From Ostrea edulis (taxonomy: Eukaryota), in assembly GCF_947568905.1 (NCBI RefSeq), contig NC_079166.1:14384001-14448000 (forward strand): 64,000 nt of DNA. Direction: 5' to 3'. Position 1 is the stretch's first letter, and each line of letters starts with the position of its first letter. The notes below the pieces were generated by a model. The model did no database searches. It saw nothing but the letters and a program-made list of their open reading frames with translations, and was not told the DNA's origin. Positions 1,786 through 63,543 of the stretch are shown piece by piece. The translations under genes were made by a program, and so were the position numbers.

Positions 1786-2652
1786 TGGCATTGTTTATTG
1801 TAACTGTTTACCCCAGAGCTGTTGCAGCACTTATGTTGTCAGGCAACAGTGATATCATTGTCATTTGAAAATGTACTGTGCATTGGTAGTACAATGATAC
1901 ATGTGTCATCAACCGAATGTCACTTGACGTGGACGATATACTACTTGAATTAACAACAGGCTTCATACCATTCCACTATGACAAAATGACTACAAAAACG
2001 TAATTTTCAACACGAATTTAGTTTAAATGGATTAGATTATGAGAGACATAATCAAATTTGGCAGCGATCGGAGCCTATGCAAGTCTTCATCTGAGTACAA
2101 GGTCACTACAAGTACATTAGTTACCTACATTAACCAAACTACATTCATAACACAATAATAAACGTATAGAGTACTTATTTGTACTGCACTGTAAATCGTA
2201 GCTAAAAATATCCTGCACATTTAAATTGACAGTACATGTAGGACTTCATAATTGTTATGCCTATGGAAATCGCCTTTTCGTGATTTAGTTTAAAAATGAC
2301 ATAATCACAATTATGTAGCCAGTAAAATACTCCCTTCTTAACGCTAGAATTGCGGAAACATGACGAAATAAATTTTCAATTCGCATTGAAATGTGAGTTA
2401 TCTATCAATTTATACAATGTTTTAACAAGACAACAGTATTATGCAAAAATAAATGTGTGATTTTTTCTAAATACAAAATGCAACAAAACATGCTATACAA
2501 ACTAGATAAATAATTGAATAATTAAAAAACAAATATGGTACTTGATTTACTTGTTACATTCATCAGAGGTATCCATATAAACAAAGCATCTGATGAGGAA
2601 TTACAACATAGACCTTAAACAGACATGTAGAATAGGTGAGGGTTCAGACGTT

Positions 2653-3033
2653 AAAATTGGTACCGTATAAGTTTTACATTATGACCCCTGGGTCGAGGCC
2701 TCTACTGGTGGACTGTTAGTCCCCGAGGGTCTCTACAGCCCAGTAGCTAAGTACTTCGTTACTAGCTTGAAAATGTGGATGTATATTTAATTGCTGTTAT
2801 AAAATTTAGAAATTCATTTCAAAATTAAGGATTATCTCCCTCATGCATAGCTCTTATACTTGGACGAATTTGGCTCCACTTTTTTGGCACGCTGTTTTTG
2901 GCTATATTTAGCTCCAAAACTTCATAGTTATTTCGGATTTCAAACATTTCGGTTGAGCATCACTGAAGAGACATTATTTGTCGAAATACGCATCTGGTGC
3001 ATCAAAATTGGTACCGTATAGGTTTTACATTAT
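2653..3033 (+). mobile_element. Retrozyme-like or PLE pseudo-LTR element, 351-nt unit with ~30-nt terminal direct repeats
   Basis: aaaattggtaccgtata(a/g)gttttacattat occurs at 2653 and 3004; hammerhead just before the 3' repeat; non-coding; second copy at ~62881-63208. Confidence 0.8.
2957..3000 (+). ncRNA. Type I hammerhead ribozyme (minimal form; helix III mismatch)
   Basis: GCATCA-CTGAAGA-GAC(attattt)GTC-GAAA-TACGCATC-TGGTGC: complete core, 6-bp helix I, helix II, AUC cleavage triplet at 2992-2994. Confidence 0.8.
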
Positions 3034-3189
3034 AGGAACAGTATTCGACATTCATGCAAATACACGCTTTGTCCACTAAGCAATTTTATCTTTAAAAAAT
3101 CTGCTTACAAGTAGTTCATGTCACAACAATACAGATGTATGTATCCTTCAGGAAATTGACAACAAATGAAGAACATAGCCATTGAGAAG

Positions 3190-3602
3190 TTAAAATGATG
3201 TGTATGTTGTTCGGCGAACTGGATTCTGTGAAAATGTAAACAGAAATATTAATACACATACGTACACCATTCCAAAACTAACATCGACTTTCTTACTTAA
3301 TTGGAAGATCTTGTACTCACCGACAGATTGATTCTTGGAAGAAGAACCACGCCGGAGTTGTTTTGGGACTCTATAATTTGATAAAAATTCCAATTATTTG
3401 CAACACACACATATTTAGCTGATGGATAGCAGGAACAGCAAAACAAAAGGAATAGAAATTTTCCCGTAATTACCTTTAACCTCATCATCACTGTGCAGAT
3501 CTTTAGAATTTGATTTGGATTCCTGAATTGAAAAGAGCAGCAGTAGAGCGATTAAGGTAAGTGGTACATCCCGCGTGTTCTTGTGTTTACTTAAGTGTTT
3601 AT

Positions 3603-20200: not shown

Positions 20201-23200
20201 GTACAGTTTCCGAGCCCACACGTAAAATTCTCGCTGAAACGTCCATCAAATCGATAAGACTGATTGTACATGTCTCCGGTAAACCTATGTATTTCCGTCC
20301 CGTTGGCAAAGCACAACTTTAGCATGGTGTCATTTGAATCAAAATATGCTTCCTCCACATTTCTGATGTGGCAGTTGATATCAACTGATTCGGTCTCCGC
20401 TACAACTGTGCTGATAGGCCGCATCACCAGAACAGGCATCTGTTTCAATTCTATATTCATTTCTGCTGTTCCGTTATAATATATTCCAGGAACGTCTGCT
20501 TCCACGTTACAAGTATATAGTCCTTAACAAAAGAGAACGAAGTAGTTATCGATCAGACTAACAAAACTACAACTCATTCATACACTGCAAGTGCTCTAAA
20601 TATATTGTTTACAGATACATGTACCTCTTATCTGAATAAAAAACAATATCCTTGAAATGCTCTAATTTTATGTCTAAACAAATTGAGAGTTCTTCCAAAT
20701 TTTACTTGAAAATGAGGATTTTAAATTCCTTATCTGATCATAACATAATTATTGTTCTAAGTTGTAGAACAATTATTTTTCACTTAATCCCTAGTGTAAG
20801 AGAAATATTTGCCCATGTTTGAAAGCCACATGAGATTTTTTTCTTTCTTACACTGCTACGACGTCATTGATTACGACGTTCTATATATTCTATTATTTAT
20901 GTACACATTGGGAAGTTTGAAAAATTGTTATTTTTATGCAAACGATTTATATTGTGTGTAGAGAACAAATATAACATATTTCATAATATCTCCTCAAAAT
21001 AGATAATTTAAAAAGATTAACAGCAATGCACCGTATGGGTATTGGGTAGGTGGGATAAGGTCGTTCTTCAGACGTTGTAAATCTGAGTTTCTAATTGCAA
21101 TGAATGAACATTAGACCTAGCCTGAATTTTGGCTATGTTCTTTGTCGCCGGGTTATATGCATGTCTCTTGGAGGTGTCAAGATGAAAACAGTTTTGCGAA
21201 TATTGATGTTTGTTTCTCCTACGCTGTAATTTCGTTGGATGTCGTCATTTTACGTTTTTCTAGTTTCTTTCCCGTATTATCCAAACGCTCGCTAAATATT
21301 TTGAACTGATATAAAATGACATTATTTGCCATACAAAACAGAATTATGAATTTTGGTTATGCAAATTAAGATTACAAATTACTTTTAGGATGCAAACTTG
21401 TCAGGTTCTGGTTTTTACAGACACACTATTTTACGTCTCGCACTTTAAATCAAACATTGCCTAGGTATAGAAATCCTCTATACAATATCTAGAATATTTT
21501 GATGAAAGTAAATAGGTGAATTATATATGATACAGACATCACAATACTTAGAAATGATAAAGCAATAAATTCGTGAAATATAAGCCGTTGTTCTAGTTGT
21601 TTCTATCACTCTATGATTTATCTGGACTACTTTGCATACTTTCGGGAATGGATAAAATAATATTAATGTAGATACTTGCCTTCCACAAGAATGCTGATTG
21701 GACGAAAATCTATAGCTGAAGAACAATATATGAAGTCACAATTTGAGGAGATCGACAAAATTGATGAATTTTGCAGTTTCACTCCATTCTTATACCAAGT
21801 AAAGTTGACTGTTCCAATCGAGAAATTCTGTGTAGAATTGAAGGAACACATAACGAAGCCGTGCTCAAGTTCTTCAATAATCGGCGAGTGTTCTATCAAT
21901 ACATCTAGATTTACAATATCTGAAAGAAAAAAAGTATGGTTATATGAGAAAAACAATTTATGTTCATTGTGTGTACATCTCTCCCTTCATTGATTGAAGG
22001 TTACCAACAAATAAGTTGATGTTACAGGAGTCTCAACAGTCTCGTTTAAAGACAGCATTTGGCAAATTTTACGGTCGTTATAACGATACAACCTGCCAAT
22101 AGGTCAAATGCTGTCTGACGTGTTTCGTACCAATTGTTAGATCGTTCTTTACACACTGATTTTGACTACACATTACTCCGTTTACCCGATTAAGATATAG
22201 GTCTCACGGCCAGTGTCAAAATGGGATGCTTACTCCTCCTGAGCACCTGACCTCATCTCTGGTGTGTCCAGGGGTCCGTGTTTGTTCACTCTCATATAAG
22301 ACTTATTGATCACTGTTTGTTATCTCCACTTTTTCATGCATGAAAGCTAACTATACATAGTATTATTGGGGTATTTTAGATTTTAGTTTATGATTAGAAA
22401 TTGCGATTATAAGATTACTACTACTGCATAATATATGTATCAAGATTAAGCAAAAAAATATAATGGTGTAGAAAACCTTGGATTATACCATAGTAATACA
22501 CAATTGTTGAAATAAGGATTGTCGTGATGTTGAATGTACGTTTACCTGGTAGAGTTGTGGGTATCTGTGACGTCGTTATAATTTCAGCAGTTGTAACCTC
22601 AGTCACCGTTGTTTCCCGTGGTGTTTCCGATGTAGTCGTTAGATATTCGTCGGTTGTTACAGTAGTTGTAGGAGTCACAGTAGTTGTGGGAGTTGCAGTA
22701 ATTATAGTAATTGTAGGAGTTGAAGAAGTTATAAGAGTTGCAGTAGTTGTAGGAATTGTGGGAGTTGCAGTAGTTGTGGAAGTTGCAGTAGTTGTAGGAG
22801 TTGTGGTAGTTGAAGGAATAGGAGCCCCAGTAGTTGTAGAAGTTATAGTAGTTGTGGGAGTTGTGATAGTTGTGGAAGTTGCAGTAGTTGTGGAAGTTGT
22901 GGTAGTTGGGGTAGTTGTGGGAGTTGTGGTAGTTACAGTAGTTATAGTAATTGTAGGAGTTGAAGAAGTTATAAGAGTTGCAGTAGTTGTAGGAATTGTA
23001 GGAGTTGTAGTAGTTTTAGGAATAGGAGCCCCAGTAGTTGTAGAAGTTATAGTAGTTGTGGGAGTTGTGGGATTTGCAGTAGTTGCAGTAGTTGTGGGAG
23101 TTGTGGTAGTTGTGGGAGTTGTAGTAGTTGTGGGAGTTGTGGTAGTTGTGGGAGTTGTGGTAGTTGTGGGAGTCGTAGTAGTTGTAGGAGATGTAGTAGT

Positions 23201-26200
23201 TGTGGGGGTTGTAGTATTTGCAGTAGTTGCAGTAGTTGTGGTAGTTGTGGGAGTTGTGGTAGTTGTGGGAGTTGTAGTAGTTGTAGGAGTTGTAGTAGTT
23301 GTGGGAGTTGTAATATTTGTAGGAGTTGTGGTAGTTGTGGGAGTTGTAGTAGTTGTGGGAGTTGTGGTAGTTGTGGGAGTTGTAGTAGTTGTGGGAGTTG
23401 TGGCAGTTGTGGCAGTTGTGGGATTTGCAGTAGCTGCAGTAGTTGTGGGAGGTGTGGGAGTTGTAGTAGTTGTGGGAGTTGTAGTAGTTGTGGGAGTTGT
23501 AGTAGTTGTGGGAGTTGTAGTAGTTGTGGGAGTTGTAGTAGTTGTGGGAGTTGTGGTAGTTGTGGGAGTTGTAGTAGTTGTAGGAGTTGTAGTAGTTGTG
23601 GGAGTTGTAATATTTGTAGGAGTTGTGGTAGTTGTGGGAGTTGTAGTAGTTGTGGGAGTTGTGGTAGTTGTGGGAGTTGTAGTAGTTGTGGGAGTTGTGG
23701 CAGTTGTGGCAGTTGTGGGATTTGCAGTAGCTGCAGTAGTTGTGGGAGGTGTGGTAGTTGTGGGAGTTGTAGTAGTTGTGGGAGTTGTAGTAGTTGTGGG
23801 AGTTGTAGTAGTTGTGGGAGTTGTAGTAGTTGTGGGAGTTGTAGTAGTTGTGGGAGTTGTAGTAGTTGTGGGAGTTGAGGTAGTTGTGGGAGTTGTGGTA
23901 GTTGTGGGAGTTGTGGTAGTTGTGGGAACTGTGGGAATTGTCAGAGATGAAGGAGCTGTGGAAATTGTAGGAACTGTGGTAGTTGTGGGAGTTTTAGTAG
24001 TTGTAAAAGTTATAGTAGTTGAGGGAGTTGTGGTAGTTGTGGGAGTTGCAGTAGTTGTAGTAGCAGTTGTAGTAGTGGTAGTGGTAGTGTTTACAGGATT
24101 TGTCGTGATAGTCAAACTAACTGTAAGTGAACCTAAATAAAATAAAAATACTACATTTGGTTTTCCTCAGTAGCAAGCGATGGACATCATAGTGAACACG
24201 TGAACATGCTGAATGAACAATGGTAGTTTTACTGTATGCATTTTGTTCTAAATCTGCATGTAATCACCTTAAATGTAGCCTTAACTTGATTTAAAGTGGA
24301 AAGATTTGAAGTTTTTATTGTATTTCATAATCTTCAATAGGACATACAAAATGACGTTACAGTTGAGAAAAAAGATACTTTGTTTTACATTAAATTATTT
24401 TTATGGTAGGGATGTCAAATAGACTAGTGTTTTGAGTATCCAATACATGTAGTATGTGCATGAATTTTCAATAACAATGATAAAGTAATTCTGAAATGGT
24501 AGAAAACATTGTACCATTTGTCATCTGGATAACACAGCTTCATGTAGTTTGTAGAGGTCTTATAACTTAATTCTGTTTTCTGCCTCGGTAATGGACATGT
24601 ACAAGCGTAATACTAACATCTTGTGATGGTCATGTTTGTAAAACAAGTAACACATATTGTCGATCAAATCTTAATTCACGTGGTTGAAATGTAAGATTTC
24701 CATGTCAAACAGACACTAATTTATTTGTCTTTTATCGTTAGTATTTGCATTCATCTGTATATCAGAATTGCAATACCTCTAACCTGCTTAGTGTTGTAGA
24801 GACTTGGGGAGTTCATTTATCATCTAACTAGTGACAGAGAAGTCTACAGCACGCCATTTATCAAATGAAATTTTAATGTTATTACATAATACAGTATCAT
24901 TGCTTTAACTGACAAAAATGGTTTGTTATAAAGCATATCTTTGTAAAAACTGCTATAAAAGATAAATACTTTTGTTCTTTAAGGATTATCAAATTATCAA
25001 ATATGAGACAATCACAGACACTCGCACAATATTGATTTAAGATTTTAGTAGATGAAAAATGTAGGCTTACGTATATCAAAGACCTTTCATAGAATTAAGA
25101 AAGTCTAATAGAACACTTAAAAGATTAAAAAGCGATAAAACAAAGTGCGAGCGTCCTCTCTCCTGGAATGATGTCACTCAGGTCTTGTAACCGACACGAA
25201 AACTGTTCCCCATCAAGCCCCAATCCTCCGAAATGCGAGAAAAATCTTCCTTAATTTCACAGACATTATCAGTAGCTTAAGCATAACAGTCTGGATGATT
25301 TTCAGAAAAAAGAAGTTCTTATCATTATTGATTGAACCTGTTTTATTTTAAAGTCACCGGAATCAAAATGGTGTCGAAATGAGTTAACTTGTTCATGGTG
25401 TTCCAGCAAGATAGGCGTTGCGTGACATGCGCATTGTGTAAATTTATGGGGACTGACAAATCAAATTTAAGGGTGTTTTGTGAATCAAATGCTTTCTAAA
25501 GCAAACCTAAGAGCAACAATTCTATTAAAACATTATCAATTTAATTTTGGATATTTTGTAGATACATGATCAAGATATAGGGCTCACGGCGGGTGTGACC
25601 GGTCGACAGGGAATGTTTACTCCTACTAGGCACCTGATCCCACCTTTGGTGTGTTCAGGGGTCCGTGTTTGCCCAACTATCTATTTTGTATTGCATATAG
25701 GAGTTATGAGATTGATCACTGTTCGTTATCTTCACCTTTCACGTACCTCTAATTAGATAGTTGCTCTCTCAAAAGTAATTATTGCGCGCACTAATTGAAT
25801 TTATGATATCATTTATCTAAGGTAAATCAAATACAACTTTGTTCATGATAGAAATATGTCGTTTAGAAAAATGTTATTCCCTGGATAAGATAAGATATTT
25901 GATAAACTATTGATAGTGAAAAGGTTTATTTTTTCCATCTATGTACATGTATTATTAGAAAAATGATGTCAAGGACAATAACTCCTATGCTGGTATTTCC
26001 TACACTACATGTTGTCAATTATTTCCCTAATATCCGCAATTGATTTATACATATTCATAAATTTGAAGTTTTTTAAACTGTTGGTATTTTGAATTTGTCA
26101 TTTGAACAAGTTTTTCTCAATTTCTATGATTCTGATTTTCTGATGTTGACCTACATTTCTGTGTTGCTATGTCTGACACCTTACAGAAATGTGGTAACAT

Positions 26201-45881: not shown

Positions 45882-46016
45882 AGGAATGACTTTAATTCTG
45901 GGGAAAGTTATACGAGTATGACCTGGTTGGGGTCAGTATACGGTTTATAAAAAAGCGTAAACTAACCCAAACCAGGTTATACTCGTATAACTTGCCCCAG
46001 AATTAAAGTCATTCCT
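45882..46016. mobile_element. 135-bp palindromic MITE flanked by TA
   Basis: aggaatgactttaattctgggg..ttatacgagtat..cctggtt mirrored by aaccagg..atactcgtataa..ccccagaattaaagtcattcct. Confidence 0.75.
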
Positions 46017-48030: not shown

Positions 48031-48129
48031 TTTATTATGTATATCATTAATGCATTGTCTTTCAATTCAAACATCAAATCACGGATTATGTCCATTATGG
48101 TTGACATGAACAGCAATTGAAAATAATGG

Positions 48130-48907
48130 GGTTGCAAAAAAGTTTGACAAGTTTAATAGCGTGTGACCGCCATTTGCACCAATGCATTCTTCACACCTAC
48201 GACGCATTGGGCAAATCAGGCTATGCAGAAATGTTTGGGGAATGTTCCGCCATATGTGCAATAAATAGCGACGCAATGCCTGGCGAATGTTCCGCCATAT
48301 GTGCAATAGACAACGACGCAATGCCTGGCGAATGTTCCGCCATATGTGCAATAAATAACGACGCAATGCCTGGCGAATGTTCCGCCATGTGTGCAATAAA
48401 TAGCGACGCAATGCCTGGGGAATGTTCCGCCATATGTGCAATAAATAGCGACGCAATGCCTGGCGAATGTTCCGCCATATGTGCAATAAATAGCGACGCA
48501 ATGCCTGGGGAATGTTCCGCCATATGTGCAATAAATAGCGACGCAATGCCTGGCGAATGTTCCGCCATATGTGCAATAAATAGCGACGCAATGCCTGGGG
48601 AATGTTCCACCATATGTGCAATAAATAGCGACGCAATGCCTGGCGAATGTTCCGCCATATGTGCAATAAATAGCGACGCAATGCCTGGCGAATGTTTCGC
48701 CATATGTGCAATAAATAGCGACGCAATGCCTGGGGAATGTTCCGCCATATGTGCAATAAATAGCGACGCAATGCCTGGCGAATGTTCCGCCATATGTGCA
48801 ATAAATAGCGACGCAATGCCTGGCGAATGTTCCGCCATATGTGCAATAAATAGCGACGCAATGCCTGGCGAATGTTCCGCCATATGTGCAATAAATAGCG
48901 ACGCAAG
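48130..48907 (-). pseudogene. Tc1/mariner transposase C-terminal remnant expanded into a 45-bp tandem array (~15 copies)
   Basis: (QALRRYLLHIWRNIR/P)n then PQTFLHSLICPMRRRCEECIGANGGHT, matching the Tc1 C-terminal W..IP....LI.SM..RC...I.A.GG.T motif. Confidence 0.75.
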
Positions 48908-49051
48908 CCTCCAACGTAACAGTAGTACTTAATGTCATACATGACCTACACTCACTTCCTACATGTATGTGTCATATGAAGTGATTAATAGAAACTTTCA
49001 GAAATAGATTGTTCATGTTTCTTGTTGTGATTAGTTGGTATTCTGTACACC

Positions 49052-54500: not shown

Positions 54501-57500
54501 TTATCAAACAAAGCTGGCTTGGTTTTCCCAAAAAGTCTCAAACTCGAGTTTTAGTTTTCTTTTATTTGAGTAGTCAAAATTTTAGCAAAATCTCAGACTT
54601 AAATCGAAGTTAGTTTCCAGAAATTTCGGTCTGAAGTCGCAATTTGTATTGGTAGAAAGTGTATAACTTATAACCAATGAAAGGTGAAGGTAACGAACAG
54701 TGATCAATCTCATAACTCTTATAAGCAATACAAAACAGATAGTTGGGCAAACCTGGACCCCTGGGCACACCAGAGGTGGGATCAGCTGTCTATGAGAAGT
54801 AAGCATCCCCTGTCGACCGGTCACATCCGCCGCGAGCCCTATATCTTAATCAGGTAAACGGAGTTATACGTAGTCAAAACTAGTGTGCCAGGAACGGCCT
54901 AACAATCGGTATGAAACATGTAAGACAGCATTTGACTCACTGAGAGGTTGTATTGATGAATAGATCGTTATAACGACCATTGAATTTGTGAAATGCTGAC
55001 TCCAATCAAGACTGTTGAAACCGCTGTACCATCAACTTGTTTGTCAGTAGCTTGCCTCGATTTAAAAACTGACTATGCCCAGAACAAGCTCTTGCGTATC
55101 GAATCAGTTGAGATATATAAACACCATATGCAGGTGATAATGGAACATTGCTACATGAATATGGGAAGTTGACGATGGAGAAGCTGAAATCATCCTGTTT
55201 GCCATACAGTTGAGTTGTCAGTTTGCCGTTAATGTCTACTTTCAATACAATATCTAAGTATGAAGCAGAAGTGGTCGACTCTGTGGTGTCCTTTATTTCG
55301 AGCTCACAGGGATATATCAAATCGACATATGAATGAAAATTAATATAATTGTTAAAAGACAAAACGTCATCAATATATCGAAATGTCGAATTGAAGGTCA
55401 CAGTGTATACCTCAGGGACACGAATGTTTAGATTGTGATCATTTAATGTGAAAATAACCAGACAAACTGAGCAAATATTTGGAACTTCACATATCTGTGT
55501 TCGAAAGGATGCGTCACTGGCAAGAATATAGACTTACTGTTCACAGACCATTCACAAACCAAGTATTCAAATACAAATGTCAGTTTGCCGTTAATGTCTG
55601 CTTTCAATAAAATATCTAAGTATAAAGCAGAAGTGGACAACTCTGTGGTGTCTTTTATTTCAAGCCCACAGGGATATATGGAATCGACATATGAATGAAA
55701 GTTATCATTGTTAATAGACAAAGTTCAATGCTTTATATTCCTAAGGTTATGTCCAATTAATTACTAAATGTACATATATAGCATTAACATTTAAAAAATA
55801 TAATGTAAGCATGCGGGTTATACATATACGTCTTTTGTGGGATCTGATTACGCTTTTTTGCCCTGGTAATAAATGTGACAAGATATTGTATTCACTTTAC
55901 AAATCTCACTAAAACGTAAGAAATGGACGTCTAGTTTATCATTAATTTTACACATCTCATTTTCTGTAATATATATGATATGGTCACCCACATGCCCAAG
56001 AGAGCAGAAGGTGATTCGTTATATCTGTATTTGAAATAAATATGAAAATATAAAAGCAAACTATCAAAAATAACCCCTGATAGAAATGGTAAAAATTCAC
56101 GAAACGGCTTTCACGGAACCGTGGACAGTTTGCATGACATATTTAATGGTTTGCACGGAGCGATGAATGCTTTGGGAGTATAGTAGTACGCCTCACGGAG
56201 CGATGAATGCTTTGGGAGTATAGTAGTACGCTTCACGGAGCGATGAATGCTTTGAGAGTATAGTAGTACGCTTCATGGAGCGATGAATGCTTTAGGAGTA
56301 TAGTAGTACGTCTCACGGAGCGATGAATGCTTTAGGAGTATAGTAGTACGTTTCACGGAGCGATGAATGCTTTAGGGGTATAGTAGTACGCTTCAGTATG
56401 TCTAGATGTTGATGACTGGTAGATATGTTTCTAGTTTATTTATCTATTTTAACTAATTAAAGCAGAAAGCTATATCCATGGTCCAGAGACTGTCACAACC
56501 GATGAGTCAGAAGATAGAGTACTCCTTTCCATGACTTGTGATGCAATGACTAATCTAGACAATTCAACAGATGTTGCGGTAAATATCATACGGCATTGTT
56601 AATTGTTCTCTACTGTAGTTTTCTGTTTTACGAAAAGGACGCCAACATTTTTATTGCGATATTAATTGCTATGAATGTTGAAATGGATTACAAATAATTT
56701 TTGCACATCAAAATCAACCACCACACTGTTTATTTTTGTTTCTTGGTTATGTTTTGGAAACTTTTTTTCTGTGTTTCTGTGTGTGTCTTTCGTACTCCGA
56801 CTGAAGTTTTAATTGTTTGTTAACTTGTATCTGTACGGTATAACTTACATCTACAATGAATGAGGTAACATTTTATCAGTAAGTTACCAAGGTTTGAGTT
56901 TTCAAGAAAAGAGAAAAAATTCTGTAAAAACAATATTCATTTAACAAGCTCGTTACTGGATGAGGAAGGGAATATAATGACTTATGCTCAATTCAAAATA
57001 TTATAACATTAAAACTTTCTTGGAGTAACACAAGCAGTAAAGAAAATGATGAGATATCTTAATAATGATCGACTGATTAAAGAAGAACTGATTGTTCCCT
57101 TACACATTATAACATGACTAGGCAATAAAACCAACAATAGAAAAATTTACAGATTATTGAATTCTAGCAAAGATAAACCAACTGAACAAAAAATGGGATA
57201 AACAATTTGAAATGCAAGGTGAAGATAACGAACAGTGATCAATCTGATAACAATATCAAGAATGGAGAGCAATTCATAAGGATGTTTTTTATGAAAACGA
57301 AATATAGTAAATTACATTGGTTACAATATGAAAGGTGAAGATAACGAACAGTGAACAATCTCATAACTCCTACAAGCAATACAAAATAGATAGTTGGGCA
57401 AACACGGACCCCTGGACACACCAGAGGTGGGATCAGGTGCCTAGTAGGAGTAAGGATCCCCTGTCGACCGGTCACACCCGCCGTGAGCCCTATATCCTGA

Positions 57501-61669: not shown

Positions 61670-63543
61670 GTTTTTAAAGGAAAATGTATTTCTACAACAC
61701 CGCTTATATCATAGCGGCGTTGTTCCTGGCATATTTTTGTATCTACTATTAGGGAATTAATAGCTGTAGCATTGATTTACACTTATCGGTAGCGTCAGTA
61801 TTTTACCGAGTACTTATCAGTAAATATCAACATCTCGCAGTATCAACAGAAATTACTATCATTGCTACCAACTGTAGAAATATGTTATTGTAAGAAGTTA
61901 TCAGTACCAAAAATACGCAATATCAGTGATTATCAAAATTAAATGACATCCTCAATACTTCTTTTCATCCAGTGCTGGACGTAAAGAGCCGTACCCTTTT
62001 ATATATAATTAAAACCTATATTCAAAATTGATTAATGTAACGTCCTTGTAAATAAGATGTGATAATTCCATTAGTGATCATGTTTTAACTACATATTACA
62101 ACAAGTGTTCAAATCGCGATAAAGATGTACATTAGATTTCCGATGCTTTGCATTGTAAATACTTGAAATGAATTGTATACCATCTAGTTCGTCAATACAA
62201 CCTCGCATTGGGTCAAATGTTGTCTGACGTGTTTCATACCGATTGTTAAGCCGTTCTTGGCACACTGATTTGACTGCGGATAACTCCGTTTACCTGATCA
62301 GGACATGGGGCTCACGGCGGGTGTGACCGGTCAACAGGGGATGCTTACTCCTCCTAGGCACCTGATCCCACCTCTGGTGTGTCCAGGGGTCCGTGTTTGC
62401 CCAACTATCTATTTTGTATTGCTTGTAGGAGTTATGAGATTGATCACTGTTCGTTATCGTCACCTTGCATACCACATATGCCTCAACTAAATATGGTTTA
62501 TTTTCAGTAAAAAGTGACAACAGTTCTTCAACGTAAGTAGCAGTACATGAAATGTCAATATCAGAAATATGTCATCATTAATGCATACAGAAAGGTGTAT
62601 ATTTACATGTCTGTCCAAAAGACTCCGGCCGAAATAGTGTGACTTTGTCTTCTATCCTGTGTTTTATTCCTTAATCATAATGTATACTAAATTCTTTATA
62701 TATCGTTATGTTCCTCACCACGGTCTTAAAACAATGTTTATTTTTACTTGCGACTTTAATGATCTAAGTTACGTTGTCTACTTTCAAGAGATGACAACAT
62801 TTCTATCGGAAAACTTACACTAAACTAGTTTGATATCATTCGATATTTGGAAAAATGTAATAAAGGATATATATATATATTGGTACCAAAATTCAAGTTT
62901 TACATTATGACCCCTGGGTCTCTACAGCCCAGTAGCTAAGTACTTCGTTACTAGCTTGAAAATATTTAATTGCTGTTGCAAAATTTAGAAATTCATTTCA
63001 AAATTAAGGATTATCTCCCTCACGCATAGCTCTTATCCTTGAACGAATTTGACTCCACCTTTTTGGCACACTGTTTTTGCCTATAATATCTCTAAAACGT
63101 CATAGTTATTTCGGATTTCAAACATTTCGGTTGCGCATCACTGAAGAGACATAATTTGTCGAAATGCGCATCTGGTGCATCAAAATTGGTACCGTATAAG
63201 TTTTACATACATTATAGATATGAAAAGATCTTATATATATGTAAATGTGTACAAATCGAAATAACGTTGTCCTTTTAGGTTGGATGTGTTGTCTGCAAAG
63301 AGACATGACGTACAGGTGACTCCCACTGCAATGGGAAATTTAGAAGGACATAGTAAACAACAGGAGCAGGTCTATGAAAACAGATTGGTGGAAACCAAAC
63401 AAGGATTAAAACAAGTGTATGAACTTAATGAAACACACATTGATGCAGCTGGAGAAATGTATGAGGCGTTGAACGCGAATGTCCAGGAACCACATATCTA
63501 TGAAGGAAAAAGTGGTTCAGGCGAACTGTACGAAGTTGTTTAA
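49052..63543 (+). CDS. Type I membrane protein with three Ig-like domains and a tyrosine-rich cytoplasmic tail, 515 aa
   Basis: Exons 49052-49118 (signal peptide MFSISSTVVITFALMTGLYGQF), 49639-49950 (D1), 51534-51673 + 52337-52568 (D2), 56466-56578 + 59441-59714 (D3), 61373-61492 (TM), 62508-62532, 63279-63543. 1548 nt, all GT-AG and phase-consistent. The Ig-like assignment rests on Cys spacing and phase-1 domain boundaries. Confidence 0.82.
50193..50443 (-). mobile_element. SINE-like element, second family, full length with 12-bp TSD
   Basis: Direct repeat caatcagaatga at 50181-50192 and 50444-50455; microsatellite tail. Confidence 0.82.
50947..51300 (-). mobile_element. 3' fragment of the PLE-like family
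   Basis: Reverse complement of the shared 3' region plus RT C-terminus. Confidence 0.82.
53540..53910 (+). mobile_element. 3' fragment of the PLE-like family
   Basis: GFQQSRLKSAFRKFYGHYNDL codons followed by the 3' region. Confidence 0.85.
54680..55405 (-). mobile_element. Penelope-like RT fragment plus 3' end
   Basis: [46 protein letters not shown]; a partial duplicate lies at ~55575-55720. Confidence 0.88.
56154..56395 (+). repeat. 40-bp tandem repeat, 6 copies
   Basis: Unit cacggagcgatgaatgcttt(g/a)ggagtatagtagtacg(c/t)(c/t)t. Confidence 0.92.
57330..57570 (-). mobile_element. 3' fragment of the PLE-like family
   Basis: Reverse complement of the shared 3' region; an extra terminal stub lies at ~57215-57245. 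Confidence 0.82.
59930..60720 (+). mobile_element. Highly decayed PLE-like RT plus 3' end
   Basis: cagatcttccaacagtctgttggaattcccat (QIFQQSVGIP), SYLDI remnant, degenerate 3' region with a ~30-bp duplication. Confidence 0.7.
60815..61060 (-). mobile_element. 3' fragment of the PLE-like family
   Basis: Reverse complement of the shared 3' region. Confidence 0.82.
61373..61492 (+). CDS. Transmembrane exon of the Ig-like receptor
   Basis: YVYVATAMMVVGVASLIAGVIACC followed by basic KVKQR; donor gtaagt. Confidence 0.88.
62180..62470 (+). mobile_element. 3' fragment of the PLE-like family
   Basis: Near-identical to the 53625-53910 segment. Confidence 0.85.
62881..63208 (+). mobile_element. Second retrozyme-like copy with two internal deletions
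   Basis: Colinear with 2653-3033. Unit is 303 nt because of a ~37-nt deletion between two gggtc repeats and a ~11-nt deletion. Confidence 0.8.
63135..63178 (+). ncRNA. Type I hammerhead ribozyme (intact, palindromic helix III)
   Basis: GCATCA-CTGAAGA-GAC(ataattt)GTC-GAA-ATGCGCAT-C-TGGTGC; predicted cleavage after C63172. Confidence 0.88.
63279..63543 (+). CDS. Terminal exon of the Ig-like receptor, encoding five YE motifs
   Basis: VYENR, VYELN, MYEAL, IYEGK, LYEVV*; acceptor gtccttttag. Confidence 0.85.

Follow-up and report, generated by a model that had tools for sequence, protein, structure and literature searches.

Non-LTR retrozymes are an already known class, and the closest described system is the retrozyme of the mussel Mytilus galloprovincialis, whose RNA undergoes self-cleavage and RtcB ligation and forms abundant circles (PMC7229834). 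PLEs have earlier been proposed as retrozyme partners (PMC7229834; PMC7761336; PMC8557442; 10.64898/2026.07.22.740005, in the sections of these sources drawn on here), PMC7229834 naming them only as candidates. Among PLEs, Naiads are without a canonical hammerhead in the sections of PMC8557442 that we draw on, and the purified Poseidon PLE has an internal reverse transcription (RT) start and needs RNA 3' of that start, according to the parts of PMC11167929 used here. The retrozymes of Xenopus are derivatives of PLE pLTRs, a link that consists of homology between pLTRs in vertebrates, a group in which no Naiads were found (10.64898/2026.07.22.740005).

Here we analyse a 64,000-nt stretch of Ostrea edulis DNA (contig NC_079166.1, positions 14,384,001 to 14,448,000; hereafter the window), in which a preliminary description had noticed a retrozyme-like element. 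We hold with good confidence that this insertion, a copy with one ribozyme and likely a dead end, belongs to a non-LTR retrozyme that is present in high copy number and is likely mobilised by the PLE Naiad via a stem-loop that the two share. Taken singly, the window copy is ordinary, and its value rests on the family-level link to Naiad. Neither a Naiad–retrozyme link nor a description of the stem-loop was found in the literature, and Repbase, subscription journals and supplements may hold the family or the motif.

The window copy and its family

The argument refers to the following features, given in window coordinates.

2653..3030, + strand: retrozyme insertion of 1.08 units; its 5' end is the truncation point and its 3' end the family's fixed end (…TTTTACAT)
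2653..2679, + strand: partial upstream copy of the tail, ending at an internal …ACAT site
2687..2744, + strand: three-tier stem-loop, also found at the Naiad 5' end, with a near-invariant core at 2700-2728
2957..3000, + strand: type I hammerhead motif from sequence reading and a motif scan, with the cut predicted after C2994
2995..3030, + strand: tail of 36 nt, from the predicted cut to the fixed 3' end
3190..3225, - strand: likely last coding exon and stop of an adhesion GPCR; the element lies antisense and downstream
55006..55533, - strand: Naiad RT fragment, the probe for full-length Naiad copies
62182..62470, + strand: Naiad 3'-end fragment, one of about 14 in the window, with the fixed end …CACCTTGCAT
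62879..63208, + strand: second, independent retrozyme copy, with the stem-loop core deleted and a ribozyme with an intact palindrome

The preliminary description had seen a 351-nt unit with terminal redundancy at 2653-3033 and another copy about 60 kb away, and both observations hold: 2653-2682 and 3004-3033 agree at 29 of 30 nt with a period of 351, and the second copy, at 62879-63208, lies on the same strand. The last three positions, 3031-3033 (TAT), are compatible with both element and target. The unit, with a GC content of 38.5%, is non-coding; ORFs of more than 40 aa are absent, and the longest on its own strand has 22 aa. In the second copy (62916 region), a 37-nt deletion between short direct repeats took exactly the stem-loop core.

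The hammerhead that had been proposed within 2653-3033 has a complete type I anatomy. Helix I pairs GCATCA (2957-2962) with TGGTGC (2995-3000), the core is CTGAAGA (2963-2969), helix II pairs GACA with TGTC around a TTATT loop, GAAA lies at 2983-2986, helix III has two pairs and a 4-nt loop, and ATC stands before the predicted cut after 2994. Rfam reported no hammerhead family at E<=1 across the whole window or at E<=10 across 2600-3100, and the call therefore rests on motif anatomy, a complete core with three helices. Folding of the hammerhead alone was no better than that of shuffles (z -1.06), nor was the 351-nt unit highly self-paired as a circle (z -0.11 and -0.7, 60 shuffles each); PMC7229834 gives no statistic for the self-pairing of its circle. 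The helix III mismatch ascribed to the window copy proved half right. The variant is real, since ATACGCATC occurs in 7 of 210 mapped ribozymes against 180 with ATGCGCATC, A2988 being a G in most family copies, but the base sits in the tetraloop and the monomer pairs are intact, so that the change would weaken only the palindromic dimer helix.

Thousands of exact matches place the family far above chance: the 43-nt ribozyme occurs 5,819 times in the genome, the 20-nt tail 10,144 times and the read-through junction 1,903 times, each with 0 matches for the reversed control. Insertions reach up to 5.4 units, and among the best 40 of 1,550 candidates identity to the window copy is 97-98%. Compared by described features, the family resembles the Mytilus retrozyme in its ~350-nt non-coding unit and thousands of copies, in its type I hammerhead with a two-pair helix III and tetraloop, and in its GC content below 45%, partial tandems and absence of LTR features (PMC7229834). 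Unlike there, as far as the main text of PMC7229834 goes, a fixed 3' end and a Naiad stem-loop are described here. The retrozyme identity first suggested is thus supported by the non-coding 351-nt unit, the hammerhead motif, the thousands of copies and the tandems, and the family is almost certainly a non-LTR retrozyme. RNA contigs from three RNA runs and one presumed RNA run cover the element without its flanks, as family-level matches only that are blind to ends, strand, level and circles and that may include DNA carry-over.

The window copy itself contains one ribozyme and is missing the 9 nt that would directly follow the upstream cut. It therefore would yield no unit-length circle by double self-cleavage and is likely a dead-end copy. 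In one study, contigs from two runs lack the element at this site (joint 2649-3031); this element-free version differs locally from the window site, with a flank about 7% different, and could represent either an allele or a paralogue. Its existence makes the window insertion recent or polymorphic. A 32.7-kb block (window position 1 to about 22,660 plus 10 kb before it), which includes the retrozyme copy with its flanks and most of the adhesion GPCR, is repeated 36 kb upstream at 99.2% identity, as a recent duplication or a retained haplotype.

The adhesion GPCR is encoded on the minus strand (GPS domain; 7TM-like exons), and the element had been placed antisense to it, about 160 bp past its stop codon. 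Indeed, the likely stop at 3190-3192 is 157 nt from the element, and one contig of the presumed RNA run stops at the splice acceptor of the 3190-3225 exon. On the GPCR strand, the first AATAAA past the stop is found only at 1761-1799. The 3' UTR may therefore extend across the element, and one could imagine the window copy as a co-opted antisense regulator within that UTR. We regard this as highly improbable: the site exists in an element-free version, the window copy shares about 98% identity with others of its family, its ribozyme lies on the strand opposite to the GPCR, and an ATTAAA at 2786 could end the UTR within the element.

Several other repeats in the window are worth recording. A long, Thr/Pro-rich exon of the GPCR (22421-24166, - strand) encodes a mucin-like repeat; the near-perfect inverted repeats at 26311-26393 and 45893-46005, with sub-threshold Rfam miRNA matches, are probably MITE-like hairpins; and a ~42-nt tandem repeat at 48079-48971 has open frames on both strands.

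A stem-loop common to retrozyme and Naiad

Naiads dominate bivalve genomes. The RT of the abundant PLE-like family of the window had been put forward as a possible copier of the retrozyme; that PLE is Naiad, and the structured stem-loop that the two share supports the suggestion. A full-length copy (L261) has a 1,028-aa frame in the order N-terminal GIY-YIG, CxC, DKA and C-terminal RT, with GIY-YIG at 159-248 (22.2 bits, just below the Pfam cut-off), CSC at 457, DKA at 584 and the RT at 772-879 (below the Pfam cut-off) with YIDD at 871. By eye, its 5' end matches Naiad_CGi, and the 5' end of the resident Naiad is nearest to published oyster consensuses. The 3' end is fixed at …CACCTT(T/G)CAT, with 35,558 exact matches in the genome, and at 27 of 30 stem-loop loci Naiad reads through it into a next unit.

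Ribozyme-free mini-Naiads also occur (L341-L343 at G000:C1:46.48 Mb, L334, L337, L338, L340, L359 and L362). They join the first 70-100 nt of Naiad, with the stem-loop, to its last 28-54 nt, stand singly or as 122-nt tandem arrays, and may define the minimal cis-signal. Many Naiad 3' ends, furthermore, are followed by tandem repeats of their own last 30-47 nt, which suggests that priming was repeated close to the 3' end.

When the retrozyme unit is compared with a full Naiad, the 29-nt stem-loop core is the only strong match. It is identical at 25 of 29 nt (E 3e-5) and scores 38, where the best of 300 shuffles scored 35; outside the stem-loop there is one weak 23-nt match (E 0.056). The core begins 19 nt past the fixed …CAT end in Naiad and 20 nt past it in the retrozyme, and both versions are predicted to form the same three-tier stem-loop. 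In a covariation set of 19 sequences (three retrozyme and three Naiad sequences from this genome and 13 of 15 metagenome loci, L374 and L377 being left out as degenerate), 9 of 22 pairs show compensatory change on both sides and 93.5% of cells pair, counts that are inflated by relatedness and by the derivation of the structure from these same sequences, the metagenome rows having been chosen by their invariant core. The covariation score was reached by 0 of 500 shuffles, slid controls pair at 36-46%, and RNAalifold recovered the inner 15 pairs and not the outer helix. The stem-loop at 2687..2744 is likely the signal that recruits the Naiad protein.

Beyond this genome, the core heads 9 of the 54 published Naiad consensuses in the material of PMC8557442 used here, from corals, oysters, another bivalve, hemichordates and a fish; one further match, inside an ORF, was set aside as a chance match. 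The retrozyme thereby resembles the Naiad_CGi / Naiad_Sglo type in having a 5' stem-loop at an equal distance from a fixed …CAT end, and Naiads generally in its partial tandems, strong 5' truncation and dispersed insertion; it differs from them in having no ORF and a canonical hammerhead (PMC8557442, same sections). A scan of metagenome contigs gave 15 core loci: three Naiad 5' ends, ten hammerhead units and two degenerate relatives. Eight of these loci have both motifs in order; there, the distance from the cut to the core is 51-57 nt (56 nt in the window family), and the related hammerhead units measure 332-350 nt. The outer stem of the retrozyme is closer to that of foreign-host Naiads (L365, L368) than to that of the resident Naiad, and an exact-pattern search for a resident Naiad with the retrozyme outer stem returned only a retrozyme variant. 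On this comparison of sequences, the likeness to foreign Naiads suggests an old capture or a transfer.

Hammerheads are not confined to the retrozyme in this genome. A very young Neptune-like PLE (L151, L152, L167, L168; e.g., G000:C1:110.50-110.52 Mb) has a unit of 3,717 nt with frames of 406 aa and 787 aa. Its copies are near-identical, occur in tandem and inverted forms, carry a minimal hammerhead core, have (TA)n targets and show two alternative 3' ends separated by 48 nt. Further type I hammerhead families (L131, L155, L163, L164, L166) have tails of about 45-50 nt, and most of them end at microsatellites, near PLE fragments.

Such elements raise the question of whether another RT, that of the young, hammerhead-bearing Neptune-like PLE or of a LINE, mobilises the retrozyme, with the stem-loop as an inherited promoter or stability element. 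Near-identical copies with a minimal hammerhead core put a candidate in this genome, published retrozyme–PLE links rest on hammerhead-bearing pLTRs (10.64898/2026.07.22.740005), and our GIY-YIG survey scored 150 of 1,102 candidates, with 50 loci read. The Neptune-like family, however, has no stem-loop, carries (TA)n at 10 of 10 ends and shows two 3' ends and frequent inversion, and was rejected as the partner. The retrozyme, for its part, has no poly(A) or repeat tail. Mobilisation by another RT thus appears improbable, and Naiad is very probably the partner.

Insertion ends, tandem units and targets

Two samples of ends were drawn, both from the start of one contig and by exact match, so that they contain too few of the very short and old copies. 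In the first, 90 loci among the first 100 ribozyme matches listed gave 82 insertions with distinct flanks. Eighty of these end 34-46 nt past the cut, with the mode at +36 (…TTTTACAT), whereas their 5' ends are spread across the whole unit. Lengths run from 67 to 835 nt among the 82, and up to 1,897 nt, or 5.4 units, among the best-match loci. The second sample consisted of 60 loci picked for the read-through junction. Their 3' ends fall at +36 to +41 in 47 cases and at other positions in the remaining 13; 4 copies start no more than 10 nt after the cut, 2 of them exactly at it, and the sharp pile-up of 5' ends at the cut that was sought in these copies amounted to a slight excess only. At one further locus (L277), a 35-nt insert begins exactly at the cut. 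A fixed internal RT start with 5' truncation is the PLE pattern. Because 3' ends are fixed and 5' ends scattered, the 30-nt redundancy is neither a designed end nor a feature of the family, but one of the results that a fixed start combined with a random stop can give; in the window copy, it is the chance stopping point of its reverse transcription. The …ACAT site at the end of 2653..2679 is likely the RT start, in RNA that continues into the stem-loop.

The tandem units were born together, from one template. Units within one insertion are closer to each other than units of different insertions in 77 of 85 pairs (mean 4.0% vs 6.2%, a few of the 85 pairs including misaligned flank), and 91 of 463 rare variants are common to the neighbouring unit of the same insertion, against 5.3 expected. 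At least two intact ribozyme cores, the two tandem ribozymes of monomer release, are present in 16 of 77 sampled clusters.

Tandem units of up to 5.4 copies could also be read as a solo pseudo-LTR of a PLE or as a satellite grown by unequal crossing-over, and local amplification from PLE ends has been proposed (10.64898/2026.07.22.740005). The preliminary description had named attachment of all copies to PLE ORFs as the mark of a solo pseudo-LTR; 116 of 150 loci have no PLE ORF match within 300 nt, and the other 34 adjoin internal or C-terminal fragments of PLE ORFs in both orientations, with an ORF start beside the element at 0 of 150. Copies are, moreover, dispersed, with one fixed and one random end, and beyond the stem-loop the likeness to Naiad consists of just the weak 23-nt match. 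This reading is largely refuted, and we give it hardly any weight.

The insertion signatures of retrozyme and Naiad are alike, with a fixed …CAT end, dispersed AT-rich targets and a short TSD excess. An end at C|AT followed by AT-rich sequence is common to 160 retrozyme and 135 Naiad ends, and a microsatellite adjoins 1 of the 160 and 2 of the 135, the former count also speaking against the other RTs considered above. TSD-like matches of at least 5 nt occur at 24 of 75 retrozyme insertions (11 in shuffled pairs) and at 17 of 57 Naiad insertions (6 in the control), which is a modest excess.

Retrozyme insertions also converge on Naiad DNA. Of 65 retrozyme ends within the last 50 nt of Naiad, 52 fall at one position, some of these being segmental duplicates, where about 0.2 would be expected per position. 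This hotspot is one site in the Naiad 3' UTR, and the 3' flank of the window copy starts with TTATAGGA, as at that homing site. Template switching from Naiad RNA was considered as the cause and rejected: at 25 of 30 loci Naiad also lies upstream, and Naiad on both sides favours insertion into DNA copies. A better microhomology 9 nt away was used once, so pairing alone does not explain the hotspot; Naiad's own use of the site is lower (9 of the first 100 of 273 matches; 0 of 135 sampled ends), so microhomology contributes.

The Anolis Poseidon PLE offers a biochemical parallel, in the sections of PMC11167929 used here: its genomic 3' end, too, is fixed and lies downstream of the ribozyme cut, its target is AT-rich, and the RNA 3' of its start site is the likely protein-binding signal. 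It differs in belonging to another PLE clade and in having two start sites, against one dominant end here; its function is shown in vitro, whereas that of the retrozyme we infer. The retrozyme also resembles those of Xenopus as a non-autonomous PLE passenger (10.64898/2026.07.22.740005). Unlike in Xenopus, the link here is a 58-nt structured module in common with a ribozyme-free Naiad, and the tandems appear to arise at insertion.

Circular and linear templates

We propose the following route. Loci with two ribozymes would be transcribed and self-cleave to monomers, which a host RtcB-type ligase, as known for the mussel retrozyme (PMC7229834), would close. A Naiad protein would bind the stem-loop and nick AT-rich DNA; priming would take place inside the RNA, at the …ACAU site that precedes the stem-loop core by about 20 nt, and the RT would copy the 36-nt tail, cross the ligated cut site and circle until a random stop. 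A linear monomer would yield only a 36-nt copy, of which the L277 insert is one case, whereas a circle would produce a ladder of lengths such as the one seen.

The chief competing scheme invokes strand transfer on a linear template. Here too Naiad would be the partner, but tandem copies would come from uncleaved tandem transcripts or from strand transfer between redundant ends, with the hammerhead as a passenger or an end-trimmer. Ribozyme-free Naiads and the 122-nt mini-Naiads form tandems too, so tandem copies need no hammerhead; ribozyme activity is dispensable for Poseidon insertion in vitro, in the sections of PMC11167929 used here; a few copies start exactly at the cut; and the variants common to units of one insertion fit a young tandem source equally well. 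Yet each round on a linear template would lose the stem-loop of the last unit, and arrays would shrink unless regenerated. Ribozyme and stem-loop are, furthermore, kept at their 51-57 nt spacing in diverged foreign-host units, and the mussel retrozyme accumulates mainly as circles (PMC7229834). We therefore consider the linear scheme unlikely and lean fairly clearly towards a circular template over a linear one.

These results speak to the question of which RT mobilises the retrozymes of animals and what signal it uses: one partner and one 58-nt RNA structure are proposed here. They also suggest that reverse transcription is the step at which tandems of retrozyme units form, and they hint at a cis-element of Naiads. 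More broadly, and with somewhat better than even confidence, we suggest that the retrozymes of bivalves parasitise ribozyme-free Naiads as circular RNAs and combine two modules: a 5' stem-loop captured from Naiad, which would fix the RT start, and a hammerhead about 55 nt upstream, which would make the circle. The stem-loop, conserved from corals to hemichordates and a fish, would then serve one subclade of Naiads as a signal for RT recruitment that has so far gone unrecognised, and any circle that carries it could be written into the genome as a tandem array.
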